From: Escherichia coli
GTDB taxonomy: Bacteria > Pseudomonadota > Gammaproteobacteria > Enterobacterales > Enterobacteriaceae
Strand: one strand, 5' to 3'
DNA length: 64,000 nucleotides
Assembly (NCBI RefSeq): GCF_003334765.1
Contig: NZ_QOWT01000007.1
Under the pieces are notes generated by a model. That model did not search any database, had not been told where the DNA came from, and saw only the letters and a program-made list of their open reading frames with translations. A program made the position numbers and the translations under genes. This document shows, in pieces, positions 26,249 to 59,017 of the stretch (positions within the stretch are counted from its first letter, which is position 1; each line of letters starts with the position of its first letter).

Positions 26249-27652
26249 GTGTCACTTTCGCTTTGGCAGCAGTGTCTTGCCCGATTGCAGGATGAGTTAC
26301 CAGCCACAGAATTCAGTATGTGGATACGCCCATTGCAGGCGGAACTGAGCGATAACACGCTGGCCCTGTACGCGCCAAACCGTTTTGTCCTCGATTGGGT
26401 ACGGGACAAGTACCTTAATAATATCAATGGACTGCTAACCAGTTTCTGCGGAGCGGATGCCCCACAGCTGCGTTTTGAAGTCGGCACCAAACCGGTGACG
26501 CAAACGCCACAAGCGGCAGTGACGAGCAACGTCGCGGCCCCTGCACAGGTGGCGCAAACGCAGCCGCAACGTGCTGCGCCTTCTACGCGCTCAGGTTGGG
26601 ATAACGTCCCGGCCCCGGCAGAACCGACCTATCGTTCTAACGTAAACGTCAAACACACGTTTGATAACTTCGTTGAAGGTAAATCTAACCAACTGGCGCG
26701 CGCGGCGGCTCGCCAGGTGGCGGATAACCCTGGCGGTGCCTATAACCCGTTGTTCCTTTATGGCGGCACGGGTCTGGGTAAAACTCACCTGCTGCATGCG
26801 GTGGGTAACGGCATTATGGCGCGCAAGCCGAATGCCAAAGTGGTTTATATGCACTCCGAGCGCTTTGTTCAGGACATGGTTAAAGCCCTGCAAAACAACG
26901 CGATCGAAGAGTTTAAACGCTACTACCGTTCCGTAGATGCACTGCTGATCGACGATATTCAGTTTTTTGCTAATAAAGAACGATCTCAGGAAGAGTTTTT
27001 CCACACCTTCAACGCCCTGCTGGAAGGTAATCAACAGATCATTCTCACCTCGGATCGCTATCCGAAAGAGATCAACGGCGTTGAGGATCGTTTGAAATCC
27101 CGCTTCGGTTGGGGACTGACTGTGGCGATCGAACCGCCAGAGCTGGAAACCCGTGTGGCGATCCTGATGAAAAAGGCCGACGAAAACGACATTCGTTTGC
27201 CGGGCGAAGTGGCGTTCTTTATCGCCAAGCGTCTACGATCTAACGTACGTGAGCTGGAAGGGGCGCTGAACCGCGTCATTGCCAATGCCAACTTTACCGG
27301 ACGGGCGATCACCATCGACTTCGTGCGTGAGGCGCTGCGCGACTTGCTGGCATTGCAGGAAAAACTGGTCACCATCGACAATATTCAGAAGACGGTGGCG
27401 GAGTACTACAAGATCAAAGTCGCGGATCTCCTTTCCAAGCGTCGATCCCGCTCGGTGGCGCGTCCGCGCCAGATGGCGATGGCGCTGGCGAAAGAGCTGA
27501 CTAACCACAGTCTGCCGGAGATTGGCGATGCGTTTGGTGGCCGTGACCACACGACGGTGCTTCATGCCTGCCGTAAGATCGAGCAGTTGCGTGAAGAGAG
27601 CCACGATATCAAAGAAGATTTTTCAAATTTAATCAGAACATTGTCATCGTAA
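26249..27652 (+). CDS. dnaA: chromosomal replication initiator DnaA
   Basis: 467-aa product from GTG at 26249 ([14 protein letters not shown]...); AAA+ Walker [12 protein letters not shown]; track start 26237 is an upstream extension. Confidence 0.95.
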
Positions 27653-32293: not shown

Positions 32294-32393
32294 TGCCTGA
32301 TGCGCTACGCTTATCAGGCCTACGAAAATCTTGCAATGTATTGAATTTTCATGATTTTGTAGGCCGGATAAGGCGTTCACGCCGCATCCGGCA
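32294..32393. repeat. BIME: two inverted REP units flanking an AT-rich spacer
   Basis: tgcctgatgcgctacgcttatcaggcctac (32294-32323) and gtaggccggataaggcgttcacgccgcatccggca (32359-32393) in opposite orientation. Confidence 0.6.
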
Positions 32394-42455: not shown

Positions 42456-42555
42456 CATCGTAGCCGATGAGGACGCGCCTGATGGGTGTTCTGGCTACCT
42501 GACCTGTCCATTGTGGAAGGTCTTACATTCTCGCTGATTTCAGGAGCTATTGATT

Positions 42556-42969
42556 ATGCGTAACTTTGATTTATCCCCGCTTTACCGTTCTGCTATTGGA
42601 TTTGACCGTTTGTTTAACCACTTAGAAAACAACCAGAGCCAGAGTAATGGCGGCTACCCTCCGTATAACGTTGAACTGGTAGACGAAAACCATTACCGCA
42701 TTGCTATCGCTGTGGCTGGTTTTGCTGAGAGCGAACTGGAAATTACCGCCCAGGATAATCTGCTGGTGGTGAAAGGTGCTCACGCCGACGAACAAAAAGA
42801 GCGCACCTATCTGTACCAGGGCATCGCTGAACGCAACTTTGAACGCAAATTCCAGTTAGCTGAGAACATTCATGTTCGTGGTGCTAACCTGGTAAATGGT
42901 TTGCTGTATATCGATCTCGAACGCGTGATTCCGGAAGCGAAAAAACCGCGCCGTATCGAAATCAACTAA
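42556..42969 (+). CDS. ibpA: small heat-shock protein IbpA
   Basis: 137-aa product [19 protein letters not shown]..., alpha-crystallin domain. Confidence 0.94.
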
Positions 42970-54712: not shown

Positions 54713-55897
54713 TTAAACGGGCTGCCCCTGATGCGACATCCGCGTCGCCAGCGGCAGCCAGCACAGCACGATCAACAATCCCATTAAGGTCATCAACAAC
54801 CCCAGGCTGCCCTGACCGGTTTGCGGCAACATCGCAGAGAGCGACGCCAGCACGCCGGAACCAATGTTTTGCAGACCGCCGACCAGCGCGCCAGCCGTGC
54901 CCGCCAGGAAGGGGAACGGCTCCATCGCGCCGCTGGTCGCCAGCGGAAACAGCATCCCGGCACCGAAAAAGAACAGCGCGGCGGGAACGAGCAGCGTCCA
55001 GACATTCATCACGCCAAACCAGTCGGGGATCCACATCAGCAAGCCAGCCAGCAGGCAGCAGATAACCGACTGCCACATTAACGTGGAGAAGCGTTTATTG
55101 GGACGTCCGGCAAACCATGCGCCAAAAAACGCTGCCGGAATCGGCAGAATAAACAAAATACTGACCGTCATACTGCTCAGCCCTAACACCGCGCCCATCA
55201 GCACGCCGGAGCAGGCTTCAAAGGCGGCAATCCCGGCCAGACCGCCAATCAGCATCAGCAAATAACAGTTAAAACCGCTGTTACCGAAAAGCGTTTTATA
55301 ACTGGTAAGCAGGCGCGTGCGCGGTGCATCGACCGGACGCGTTTCCGGCATCCAGCGGGCCATACTGAAGGTCACACCAGCACAAAGAACCAACAAAAAG
55401 AGATAACAGGCGCGCCAGTTCCACATCGTATCCAGCAGACCGCCGATTAGCGGTGCGAGCAACGGACTGACGAGAATCCCCATGTTTAACAGGCTGTTAG
55501 CATGGCGCAACTGTGTCCGTTCATATAAGTCTCGCGGTAAAGTACGCGCCATTACGCCGCCAACGCCGGTGCCCATCCCCTGCATCGCGCTGGCGGCAAT
55601 CAACACCGTCAAACTGGAGGTCGTGACCGCGACCAGCGTTGCCAGCATAAAAATGGACATTCCGACGAGGATCACCGGTCGGCGGCCCACGCGGTCGGAA
55701 ATCGGGCCATAAAACAGCTGTGAGACACCGTAAGTCAGCAGATAAGCGCCCATTACGCTCTGCACCGCCCCTTCACGGACGTTGAGATCGCGCGCCATAT
55801 CGGCAATAGCTGGAATATAAATGGTTTGCGCCATCTGACCGACGGCCACGAGTAATACCAACATCAATAACAAATTGACGTTTCTTTGCCTTTTCAT
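54713..55897 (-). CDS. emrD: MFS multidrug efflux transporter EmrD
   Basis: 394-aa product MKRQRNVNLLLMLVLLV... Confidence 0.9.
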   Translation of the reverse strand: MKRQRNVNLLLMLVLLVAVGQMAQTIYIPAIADMARDLNVREGAVQSVMGAYLLTYGVSQLFYGPISDRVGRRPVILVGMSIFMLATLVAVTTSSLTVLIAASAMQGMGTGVGGVMARTLPRDLYERTQLRHANSLLNMGILVSPLLAPLIGGLLDTMWNWRACYLFLLVLCAGVTFSMARWMPETRPVDAPRTRLLTSYKTLFGNSGFNCYLLMLIGGLAGIAAFEACSGVLMGAVLGLSSMTVSILFILPIPAAFFGAWFAGRPNKRFSTLMWQSVICCLLAGLLMWIPDWFGVMNVWTLLVPAALFFFGAGMLFPLATSGAMEPFPFLAGTAGALVGGLQNIGSGVLASLSAMLPQTGQGSLGLLMTLMGLLIVLCWLPLATRMSHQGQPV

Positions 55898-56074
55898 TAT
55901 CACGGATGCTTTTATAAAAATAATTAGAATAAGTCACTACGCATTCCCATAAATGCGGGAGAGGAATCTATCACATTGATGAATGTTAGCCAGATATACG
56001 CCAGGAATGGGGAATTGTTTAGCGGCAGAATATGTAAACAAAAGCGGCAATAAATGTTGCCGGGAGAGATGGTA

Positions 56075-56110
56075 GGGCGGATAAGATGCGTCAGCATCGC
56101 ATCCGACACC
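56075..56110. repeat. REP-like palindrome upstream of emrD
   Basis: gcggataagatgcgtcagcatcgcatccgaca resembles a REP unit. Confidence 0.4.
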
Positions 56111-56121
56111 AACCCGCACGC

Positions 56122-56155
56122 TAAATATAAAAGGGGAGCGGTTTCCCGCTCCCCT
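56122..56155 (-). terminator. Rho-independent terminator of tisB
   Basis: ggggagcgg / ccgctcccc hairpin; on minus strand followed by UUUUAUAUUU. Confidence 0.65.
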
Positions 56156-56176
56156 TTGGTGCGACTTGAATCTGAA

Positions 56177-56266
56177 TTACTTCAGGTATTTCAGAACAGC
56201 ATCAAGCAGTTGCAGTGCTGCAACAATGAGTTTGAGGATAAGAATGGCGATATCCACCAGGTTCAT
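56177..56266 (-). CDS. tisB: type I toxin TisB (29-aa membrane peptide)
   Basis: Minus-strand ORF translating to MNLVDIAILILKLIVAALQLLDAVLKYLK, preceded by aggag Shine-Dalgarno; too short for the ORF track. Confidence 0.88.
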   Translation of the reverse strand: MNLVDIAILILKLIVAALQLLDAVLKYLK

Positions 56267-56502
56267 ACGCGTCTCCTGTGGTTCAGGAGCACTGCCAGCT
56301 GACGTACCTTTCCGCTGCCTGTTGCCAGCTGTTGTGCACGCGGTATCTCAAGGAGAAACGTTGTGCTTGTTGACATAACACAGTGTGCTCACGCGGGGTT
56401 AAGGCGCTGACGGCACCACCCGTTTCAGCCAGGACTTAGTGCGCCGGGTAACGATGCGGCCCCCGCATAACACATTGCGTACAGTGATATTATAGAAGTT
56501 TA

Positions 56503-56518
56503 CTGTATAAATAAACAG
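56503..56518. promoter_or_regulatory. LexA box (SOS operator) in divergent tisAB / istR-2 promoter region
   Basis: ctgtataaataaacag = CTGT-N8-ACAG; candidate tisAB -10 TATAAT on minus strand at 56489-56494. Confidence 0.75.
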
Positions 56519-56560
56519 TAATATTTGGACAAAACGCAAACTGTGATCGATACTCAACTA

Positions 56561-56701
56561 TGCACTAAATACGTCAAAATTCGTGCCGAAATTGCGCGTT
56601 CTGCGCGGAACACGTATACTTTCAGTGTTGACATAATACAGTGTGCTTTGCGGTTACCAGCCGCAGGCGACTGACGAAACCTCGCTCCGGCGGGGTTTTT
56701 T
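56561..56701 (+). ncRNA. istR: IstR antitoxin sRNA (IstR-2 about 140 nt; IstR-1 about 75 nt at roughly 56626-56701)
   Basis: Plus-strand terminator hairpin with T-run ending about 56701; candidate -10 tatact at 56615-56620 for the short form; 20-nt segment 56628-56647 complementary to tisAB mRNA region 56370-56389; ends estimated from published sizes. Confidence 0.55.
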
Positions 56702-56830
56702 GTTATCTGCAATTCAGTACAAAACGTGATCAACCCCTCAATTTTCCCTTGCTGAAAAATTTTCCATTGTCTCCCCTGTAAAGCTGTGCTTGTATAAATA
56801 TTGTTAAACACAAAACCAACAAGGTCCCCA

Positions 56831-56929
56831 ATGACTACTTCCATGCTCAACGCAAAACTACTACCAACTGCGCCATCCGCCGCAGTGGTCGTCGTGCGTG
56901 TGGTGGTGGTCGTCGGCAATGCGCCGTAG
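56831..56929 (+). CDS. ivbL: ilvB operon leader peptide IvbL
   Basis: 32-codon ORF MTTSMLNAKLLPTAPSAAVVVVRVVVVVGNAP rich in Val/Leu codons, followed by attenuator hairpin. Confidence 0.85.
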   Translation: MTTSMLNAKLLPTAPSAAVVVVRVVVVVGNAP

Positions 56930-56952
56930 GGACTGGAACAACACACGATTCC

Positions 56953-56987
56953 AAAACCCCGCCGGCGCAAACCGGGCGGGGTTTTTC
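56953..56987 (+). terminator. ilvB attenuator terminator
   Basis: aaccccgccgg ... ccgggcggggtt hairpin followed by TTTTT, between ivbL and ilvB. Confidence 0.7.
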
Positions 56988-57034
56988 GTTTAAGCACCTC
57001 CCGGAAAGTCGGCCCAGAAGAAAAGGACTGGAGC

Positions 57035-58723
57035 ATGGCAAGTTCGGGCACAACATCGACGCGTAAGCGCTTTACCGGCGCAGAATTTATCGTTCATTTC
57101 CTGGAACAGCAGGGCATTAAGATTGTGACAGGCATTCCGGGCGGTTCTATCCTGCCTGTTTACGATGCCTTAAGCCAAAGCACGCAAATCCGCCATATTC
57201 TGGCCCGTCATGAACAGGGCGCGGGCTTTATCGCTCAGGGAATGGCGCGCACCGACGGTAAACCGGCGGTCTGTATGGCCTGTAGCGGACCGGGTGCGAC
57301 TAACCTGGTGACCGCCATTGCCGATGCGCGGCTGGACTCCATCCCGCTGATTTGCATCACTGGTCAGGTTCCCGCCTCGATGATCGGCACCGACGCCTTC
57401 CAGGAAGTGGACACCTACGGCATCTCTATCCCCATCACCAAACACAACTATCTGGTCAGACATATCGAAGAACTCCCGCAGGTCATGAGCGATGCCTTCC
57501 GCATTGCGCAATCAGGCCGCCCAGGCCCGGTGTGGATAGACATTCCTAAGGATGTGCAAACGGCAGTTTTTGAGATTGAAACACAGCCCGCTATGGCAGA
57601 AAAAGCCGCCGCCCCCGCCTTTAGCGAAGAAAGCATTCGTGACGCAGCGGCGATGATTAACGCTGCCAAACGCCCGGTGCTTTATCTGGGCGGCGGTGTG
57701 ATCAATGCGCCCGCACGGGTGCGTGAACTGGCGGAGAAAGCGCAACTGCCTACCACCATGACTTTAATGGCGCTGGGCATGTTGCCAAAAGCGCATCCGT
57801 TGTCGCTGGGTATGCTGGGGATGCACGGCGTGCGCAGCACCAACTATATTTTGCAGGAGGCGGATTTGTTGATAGTGCTCGGTGCGCGTTTTGATGACCG
57901 GGCGATTGGCAAAACCGAGCAGTTCTGTCCGAATGCCAAAATCATTCATGTCGATATCGACCGTGCAGAGCTGGGTAAAATCAAGCAGCCGCACGTGGCG
58001 ATTCAGGCGGATGTTGATGACGTGCTGGCGCAGTTGATCCCGCTGGTGGAAGCGCAACCGCGTGCAGAGTGGCACCAGTTGGTAGCGGATTTGCAGCGTG
58101 AGTTTCCGTGTCCAATCCCGAAAGCGTGCGATCCGTTAAGCCATTACGGCCTGATCAACGCCGTTGCCGCCTGTGTCGATGACAATGCAATTATCACCAC
58201 CGACGTTGGTCAGCATCAGATGTGGACCGCGCAAGCTTATCCGCTCAATCGCCCACGCCAGTGGCTGACCTCCGGTGGGCTGGGCACGATGGGTTTTGGC
58301 CTGCCTGCGGCGATTGGCGCTGCGCTGGCGAACCCGGATCGCAAAGTGTTGTGTTTCTCCGGCGACGGCAGCCTGATGATGAATATTCAGGAGATGGCGA
58401 CCGCCAGTGAAAATCAGCTGGATGTCAAAATCATTCTGATGAACAACGAAGCGCTGGGGCTGGTGCATCAGCAACAGAGTCTGTTCTACGAGCAAGGCGT
58501 TTTTGCCGCCACCTATCCGGGCAAAATCAACTTTATGCAGATTGCCGCCGGATTCGGCCTCGAAACCTGTGATTTGAATAACGAAGCCGATCCGCAGGCT
58601 TCATTGCAGGAAATCATCAATCGCCCTGGCCCGGCGCTGATCCATGTGCGCATTGATGCCGAAGAAAAAGTTTACCCGATGGTGCCGCCAGGTGCGGCGA
58701 ATACTGAAATGGTGGGGGAATAA
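57035..58723 (+). CDS. ilvB: acetolactate synthase I large subunit IlvB
   Basis: 562-aa ThDP-enzyme ORF. Confidence 0.95.
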   Translation: MASSGTTSTRKRFTGAEFIVHFLEQQGIKIVTGIPGGSILPVYDALSQSTQIRHILARHEQGAGFIAQGMARTDGKPAVCMACSGPGATNLVTAIADARLDSIPLICITGQVPASMIGTDAFQEVDTYGISIPITKHNYLVRHIEELPQVMSDAFRIAQSGRPGPVWIDIPKDVQTAVFEIETQPAMAEKAAAPAFSEESIRDAAAMINAAKRPVLYLGGGVINAPARVRELAEKAQLPTTMTLMALGMLPKAHPLSLGMLGMHGVRSTNYILQEADLLIVLGARFDDRAIGKTEQFCPNAKIIHVDIDRAELGKIKQPHVAIQADVDDVLAQLIPLVEAQPRAEWHQLVADLQREFPCPIPKACDPLSHYGLINAVAACVDDNAIITTDVGQHQMWTAQAYPLNRPRQWLTSGGLGTMGFGLPAAIGAALANPDRKVLCFSGDGSLMMNIQEMATASENQLDVKIILMNNEALGLVHQQQSLFYEQGVFAATYPGKINFMQIAAGFGLETCDLNNEADPQASLQEIINRPGPALIHVRIDAEEKVYPMVPPGAANTEMVGE

Positions 58724-58726
58724 GCC

Positions 58727-59017
58727 ATGCAAAACACAACTCATGACAACGTAATTCTGGAGCTCACCGTTCGCAACCATCCGGGCGTAATGACCCACGT
58801 TTGTGGCCTTTTTGCCCGCCGCGCTTTTAACGTTGAAGGCATTCTTTGTCTGCCGATTCAGGACAGCGACAAAAGCCATATCTGGCTACTGGTCAATGAC
58901 GACCAGCGTCTGGAGCAGATGATAAGCCAAATCGATAAGCTGGAAGATGTCGTGAAAGTGCAGCGTAATCAGTCCGATCCGACGATGTTTAACAAGATCG
59001 CGGTGTTTTTTCAGTAA
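58727..59017 (+). CDS. ilvN: acetolactate synthase I small (regulatory) subunit IlvN
   Basis: 96-aa ORF, 4 bp after ilvB. Confidence 0.93.

Follow-up and report, generated by a model that had tools for sequence, protein, structure and literature searches.

The leader region of the ilvBN operon, ivbL, has been described in Escherichia coli since the early 1980s. Its attenuator was reportedly defined by Friden, Newman and Freundlich in PNAS in 1982 and by Hauser and Hatfield in NAR in 1983 and PNAS in 1984; these studies are said to have observed termination in vitro, with a leader RNA of about 180-190 nt, and a promoter that depends on cAMP-CRP. Reporter assays have found that an ivbL-gfp fusion is repressed by valine and by leucine and is unaffected by amino acids with few codons in the leader, and that recoding the control codons of the leader makes it respond to other amino acids (PMC11187965). 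Two further studies also describe ivbL as the ilvBN attenuator (PMC9299463, PMC11347164).

Our study examined the stretch of 64,000 nucleotides referred to here as the window, in which an earlier sequence-only reading had placed an ivbL leader peptide and attenuator upstream of ilvB. We are close to certain that the element found at this position is the E. coli ivbL-ilvBN leader and that it is a ribosome-mediated transcription attenuator, and every testable defining feature of such an element is present. It is a textbook attenuator that can be recognised from the raw sequence alone. It is also already known, being annotated in essentially every E. coli genome, and it holds no new biology. Table 1 includes the features of the locus and their coordinates.

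Table 1. Features of the ivbL-ilvBN leader region, in positions of the window; structural elements are given as folded in this study.
Feature	Coordinates	Strand	Details
Candidate -10 hexamer TATAAA of the ivbL promoter	56793..56798	+	Read from sequence
Shine-Dalgarno region AAGGUCCC	56821..56828	+	GGUCCC (56823-56828) can pair with GGGACU (56929-56934)
ivbL leader ORF	56831..56929	+	ATG at 56831, TAG at 56927-56929; 32 sense codons, MTTSMLNAKLLPTAPSAAVVVVRVVVVVGNAP
Tandem Leu control codons CUA CUA (codons 10-11)	56858..56863	+	All six bases invariant in 79 aligned sequences
ORF hairpin CUGCG (56868-56872):CGCAG (56881-56885), part of the upstream protector	56868..56885	+	U-A to C-G change at 56869:56884
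Val control run (codons 19-28), VVVVRVVVVV	56885..56914	+	Nine of ten codons Val, one Arg
Small protector hairpin CGGC (56914-56917):GCCG (56923-56926)	56914..56926	+	In the full-length MFE and in the nascent fold to 56952
Antiterminator	56921..56968	+	GCGCCG (56921-56926):CGGCGC (56963-56968); GGG (56929-56931):CCC (56958-56960); encloses hairpin 56934-56939 / 56947-56953
Rho-independent terminator (attenuator)	56953..56990	+	Stem 56953-56965 / 56972-56985 interrupted by a bulged G; U-run at 56981-56985, followed by CGUUU
Regulated genes ilvB (57035-58723) and ilvN (58727-59017), acetohydroxyacid synthase I	57035..59017	+	RefSeq annotation

The ivbL leader and its surroundings

The identity of the leader ORF was established from annotation, protein families and genome comparison. 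RefSeq places ivbL (WP_001300753.1, 'ilvB operon leader peptide IvbL') with the same sequence at the coordinates of the ORF, and the peptide matches the NCBIfam equivalog NF007579 with 78.7 bits (cutoff 60) over residues 1-32 of 32, as well as the Pfam family PF08049 (IlvB_leader) with 72.5 bits (E = 2.3e-20). The ORF shares its strand with ilvB-ilvN and lies directly upstream of them. The ivbL and ilvB coordinates of one E. coli record map exactly onto 56831-56929 and 57035-58723, and the gene order in one matching E. coli record is tisB, ivbL, ilvB, ilvN, uhpA. A 401-nt query around ivbL was matched at 95% identity or more by 5,419 of the 5,426 complete E. coli genomes, always on the chromosome, and the features beneath these matches were ivbL (leader peptide IvbL) and ilvB (acetolactate synthase large subunit). 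The RefSeq position, the two family matches and the conservation described below bear out the earlier placement of a leader and attenuator upstream of ilvB.

As in other ribosome-mediated attenuators, the leader ORF is short and translatable, with an AAGG Shine-Dalgarno sequence 6 nt 5' of its AUG, and it carries clustered regulatory codons, namely nine Val in ten codons together with three Leu. When all of the approximately 128,000 ten-codon windows in the six frames of the 64-kb window were searched for at least seven Val codons, the Val run of ivbL was the sole locus recovered. The sequence-only reading had described a 32-codon ORF containing a run of Val and Leu codons. The ORF is as it had stated, from ATG to TAG (Table 1), and the Val part is correct, the stretch that it quoted (AAVVVVRVVVVVG) consisting only of Val codons; the Leu part is not, given that the three Leu codons of ivbL are codons 6 (CUC), 10 (CUA) and 11 (CUA), all of them 5' of the Val run. 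CUA is the rarest Leu codon in E. coli, and the presence of a fixed CUA CUA pair in all 79 aligned sequences suggests selection on the choice of tRNA isoacceptor.

Read from the sequence, the start of ivbL transcription would lie near 56805-56807, about 25 nt upstream of the AUG. A consensus promoter scan made no call at the candidate -10 hexamer TATAAA because the -35 element is poor. A candidate CRP-like site, CGTGA-N6-CCTCA, occupies 56725-56740 of the window, about 70 nt 5' of this putative start, which is consistent with the known activation of ilvB by cAMP-CRP. Further upstream, just 5' of ivbL, lies the sRNA istR (Rfam RF01400, 150 bits; 56572-56701, plus strand), the antitoxin of tisB, which is the only above-threshold Rfam match near ivbL and has a terminator of its own; the type I toxin ORF tisB (MNLVDIAILILKLIVAALQLLDAVLKYLK) is found near istR, also upstream of ivbL, at 56177-56266 on the minus strand. 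Elsewhere in the window, matches at the Rfam gathering score were obtained for AsdA, the antisense RNA of dnaA mRNA (26759-26839, minus strand), for the ES036/CssrF sRNA (32316-32358, minus strand) and for the ROSE_2 RNA thermometer (42490-42562, plus strand).

Between the ivbL ORF and ilvB stands an intrinsic terminator, as is expected of an attenuator. The GC-rich hairpin and T-run that had been noticed from the sequence correspond to AAAACCCCGCCGG-CGCAAA-CC(G)GGCGGGGUUUU at 56953-56985, with a folding energy of -21 kcal/mol and a UUUUU end (56981-56985). The accompanying statement that the hairpin follows the ORF within 25 nt is approximate: it agrees with the 23 nt that separate the stop codon from the first A-U pair and disagrees with the 27 nt to the first G-C pair. 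A simple consensus terminator scan made no call at this hairpin. The miss was most likely caused by the bulged G, which breaks the ungapped stem that the scan requires, and it is not counter-evidence. A 3' end named ivbL_t has been catalogued by Term-seq, and the isolated ivbL_t terminator was weak in a reporter assay (PMC9023263). Rfam was searched over 55800-57300 (E <= 1) and over the whole window (gathering score), and neither search matched a leader family, or any other model, to this leader. On the minus strand, sub-threshold Rfam matches to P6 (22 bits) and STnc310 (21 bits) cover the terminator at 56955-57005; an A-run and a U-run flank the hairpin, which thus looks like a terminator on either strand, and these matches most likely represent a generic resemblance to terminators.

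Alternative folds and the position of the ribosome

The sequence-only reading had proposed a search for an alternative pairing able to sequester the 5' arm of the terminator. Our folds contain such an antiterminator (56921-56931:56958-56968), whose isolated element has an energy of -19.5 kcal/mol; the helix coordinates are those of the folds of this analysis. When the nascent transcript ends at 56968, a point at which the 5' arm of the terminator has been made and the 3' arm is absent, the antiterminator is the minimum free energy structure. Its 5' strand is formed by the last two codons (31-32), the stop codon and GG. Its 3' strand, 56958-56968, falls in the 5' arm and loop of the terminator, and bases 56958-56965 of the arm are shared by both structures. 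An alternative antiterminator through the G-rich Val run (GGUGG with CCGCC) was also considered; it has about five contiguous pairs by inspection, and it was rejected, being chosen by neither the MFE nor RNAalifold.

To relate these folds to translation, each codon in turn was taken as the A site under two footprint assumptions on the nascent transcript to 56968. With A-site codons from 1 to 25/26, the antiterminator remained intact, with nine of its nine outer pairs formed at a mean pair probability of approximately 0.88. From A-site codon 27/28 through the stop codon it was abolished, and none of the nine outer pairs formed. In these models, the arrangement meets the needs of attenuation: the antiterminator strand would be covered by a ribosome at the end of the leader and left free by one stalled at Val or Leu codons. 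In the full leader, the equilibrium fold was always the terminator wherever a 29-nt ribosome footprint was placed. This outcome is expected for a hairpin of -21 kcal/mol and is uninformative on a kinetic switch; given that the full transcript at equilibrium always forms the terminator, the switch must be kinetic.

It is important to consider how much weight a fold of this kind can bear. When the 67 nt 5' of the terminator arm were shuffled 1,000 times with dinucleotide content preserved, the GC-rich arm gained a pairing energy equal to or greater than the real one in 855 cases, which is not significant, and at least as many arm bases were paired upstream in 588. A single-sequence fold alone is therefore weak evidence, as the search could hardly have failed. 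With a terminator arm so rich in GC, the search for an alternative pairing in one sequence cannot discriminate, and it is the cross-species conservation that supports the switch.

The same folds include structures that may act as a protector. The transcript to 56952 folds into a long helix at 56831-56913, in which the N-terminal codons pair with the Val run, together with the CGGC/GCCG hairpin and the closing helix GGUCCC:GGGACU (56823-56828 / 56929-56934), the last of which is also present in the full-length MFE. These three elements occupy the antiterminator strand before its partner exists, and the small hairpin (56914-56926) pre-occupies part of the antiterminator 5' strand. Once the 5' arm of the terminator is present, the antiterminator state is more stable than the protector state by 8.3 kcal/mol, and the antiterminator is also the favoured structure in the nascent-transcript ensemble when no ribosome is included (P = 0.88). 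Termination in the absence of translation is therefore predicted to require kinetic trapping.

Conservation across Enterobacteriaceae

We conducted a protein-guided scan with one genome per species, which yielded 80 ilvB loci with an IlvB identity of 83-99% in Escherichia, Citrobacter, Salmonella, Klebsiella, Raoultella, Enterobacter, Kluyvera, Kosakonia, Pluralibacter, Leclercia, Lelliottia and relatives. Of these, the 78 with enough sequence 5' of ilvB all have a leader ORF that ends in ...LL.TA....VVVV[R/S]VVVVVG.AP, usually 100-108 nt from ilvB. The peptide, the terminator and the antiterminator are all kept in these 78 Enterobacteriaceae orthologues.

The pairings were followed in an alignment of 79 sequences, 73 of which are distinct. 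The terminator is essentially invariant, with 98.5% of its cells paired. The nine outer pairs of the antiterminator are 100% paired in the 73 distinct sequences, with a single G-C to G-U change, and unguided RNAalifold picks the antiterminator pairing for the consensus structure. Changes that preserve pairing were found in two hairpins: in the inner hairpin, 56938:56949 is U-A in place of A-U in 11 distinct sequences, and in the ORF hairpin 33 distinct sequences (36 of 79 overall) have C-G in place of U-A at 56869:56884, all cells being standard pairs. The small hairpin at 56914-56917 / 56923-56926 is 100% paired and invariant in the 73 distinct sequences, and the closing helix GGUCCC:GGGACU is 85.8% paired across orthologues, mostly with one-sided G-U changes. 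It is important to note that the terminator and the outer stem of the antiterminator show no covariation, both being invariant, that the compensatory changes sit in hairpins compatible with both states, and that the invariance could in principle reflect other constraints.

The mean column identity of the Val run is 0.979, with 21 of its 30 columns invariant and its synonymous third positions near-fixed; the segment of codon 29 through the stop codon has an identity of 0.986 and the terminator one of 0.979. The third-codon positions of ilvB in the same genomes, used as a neutral comparator, have a column identity of 0.675. The stretch from the Val run through the terminator is thus far more conserved than the neutral sites of the adjacent gene. 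This conservation, which includes synonymous and non-coding sites, indicates that selection acts on the RNA and on codon identity beyond the peptide. The comparative data are stronger than the single-sequence test as evidence for the attenuator switch.

In some Citrobacter, Klebsiella and Enterobacteriaceae genomes, about 125 nt are inserted downstream of the attenuator terminator, ahead of the ribosome-binding site of ilvB (L007:1040-1175, L022:1040-1175, L054:1040-1175), with the attenuator intact, and three other loci (L016, L044, L052) have truncated versions of about 60-80 nt. This insertion resembles an ERIC/IRU repeat, with the core ...GAATC[T/C]CCAGGAGCGTACAT.GGTACGTGACTG.GG...

Mechanism, competing explanations and known attenuators

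The amino-acid attenuation design recognised by the sequence-only reading holds at this locus: the attenuator parts are present and mutually exclusive, the antiterminator depends on the position of the ribosome and is kept in the 73 distinct sequences, and published reporter work has shown that Val and Leu repress expression downstream of ivbL (PMC11187965). Under this design, a ribosome would translate the 32-codon leader while RNA polymerase transcribes the next ~55 nt. With charged tRNA-Val and tRNA-Leu plentiful, the ribosome would reach codons 27-32 or the UAG and cover 56921-56931; the 5' arm of the terminator would then pair with 56972-85, and transcription would stop at the U-run before ilvB. 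If Val or Leu is scarce, the ribosome would stall at the nine Val codons (19-28) or at CUA-CUA (10-11), so that 56921-56931 could pair with 56958-56968 and form the antiterminator. With no terminator able to form, the polymerase would read into ilvBN, whose product makes acetolactate, a precursor of Val and Leu. When no ribosome is present, termination probably has time to occur because the protector, which forms earlier, keeps hold of the antiterminator strand; its parts are the large helix (56831-56913), the hairpin 56914-17/56923-26 and GGUCCC:GGGACU. It is from the folds that we infer the kinetic order of folding and the role of the protector.

Other explanations of these observations were weighed against attenuation. 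The hairpin might be merely a constitutive intrinsic terminator, for instance the end of a short upstream transcript, with an incidental Val-rich ORF and no switch. On this account a chance partner for a GC-rich arm is to be expected, as in the shuffle control, and the equilibrium fold always gives the terminator. However, the upstream sRNA istR ends at its own terminator (56676-56699), so that the ivbL hairpin is not the end of the istR transcript; moreover, the ORF, the Val run, the CUA-CUA pair and the hairpin spacing are conserved in 78 species with near-fixed synonymous sites, and the reporter data show control by both Val and Leu (PMC11187965). We consider a purely constitutive terminator highly improbable. 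An even more remote chance is assigned to IvbL being a functional hydrophobic micropeptide conserved for its own activity, which would account for the almost invariant C-terminal VVVVRVVVVVGNAP but leaves aside the fact that the synonymous third positions and the non-coding bases after the stop codon are conserved too, which points to selection on RNA and codons, and that the N-terminal half of the peptide varies freely.

Special attention was given to the sRNA GcvB, which together with RNase E could act on the ivbL 5' UTR and the ivbL-ilvB spacer as the main control in place of ribosome stalling. GcvB uses its R1 region to repress translational fusions of ivbL and ilvB (PMC9299463), RNase E sites are found in the ivbL-ilvB intergenic region (PMC11347164), and the 5' UTR and positions 56938-56948 contain CA-rich stretches with complementarity to R1. 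Nevertheless, the reported repression of ivbL by GcvB is weak (PMC9299463), and the runs of Val and Leu codons and the terminator/antiterminator pair would be left unexplained; these observations fit better with GcvB as an extra layer over attenuation, and its being the main control is very unlikely. GcvB as a new regulator of ivbL/ilvB was rejected as a candidate finding, given that it has already been published (PMC9299463).

Using a gcvB sequence from an E. coli genome, where the gene lies between gcvA and ygdI, we predicted the sites of R1 with RNAduplex. The best site corresponds to ilvB codons 4-9 (GCACAACAUC, 57046-57059; -24.6 kcal/mol), and weaker sites are predicted in the ivbL ORF and the 5' UTR. 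R1 would also pair, at -20.9 kcal/mol, with the loop AACAACACACG (56938-56948), which is CA-rich, unpaired and nearly invariant and lies inside the antiterminator, just 5' of the terminator. These models raise the tentative and, in our judgement, rather unlikely idea that this loop is a docking site for the R1 seed of GcvB, whose pairing biases the choice between terminator and antiterminator. If true, the sRNA would act on attenuation itself, in addition to repressing the translation of ivbL and ilvB, which is the effect already published; PMC9299463 does not deal with the consequences of the loop site for attenuation.

Returning to attenuation by the ribosome, the preferred reading, the leader can be compared with the other systems of this kind. 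The ilvL-ilvGMEDA and leuL-leuABCD leaders have the same design as ivbL: a short ORF in which the regulatory amino acids abound and, 3' of it, antiterminator and terminator hairpins that exclude one another. In leuL, as in ivbL, the rare Leu codon CUA serves as a control codon. In contrast to ilvL and leuL, E. coli ivbL lacks Ile codons, and Val and Leu are the only amino acids to which it responds; it also belongs to a different peptide family with different RNA sequences, and the Rfam leader models have no match to ivbL. The logic of the 1:2 / 2:3 / 3:4 model of trpL is likewise found in ivbL, where a ribosome at the stop codon would mask the 5' strand of the antiterminator and a stall at the control codons would free it. 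Unlike in trpL, the predicted protector of ivbL is much weaker than the antiterminator (by 8.3 kcal/mol), and its default without translation is therefore predicted to rest on kinetic trapping. With respect to the ivbL-ilvBN attenuator of E. coli K-12, nothing substantive is different: the locus studied here is the same element, with an identical peptide, position, terminator and set of downstream genes.
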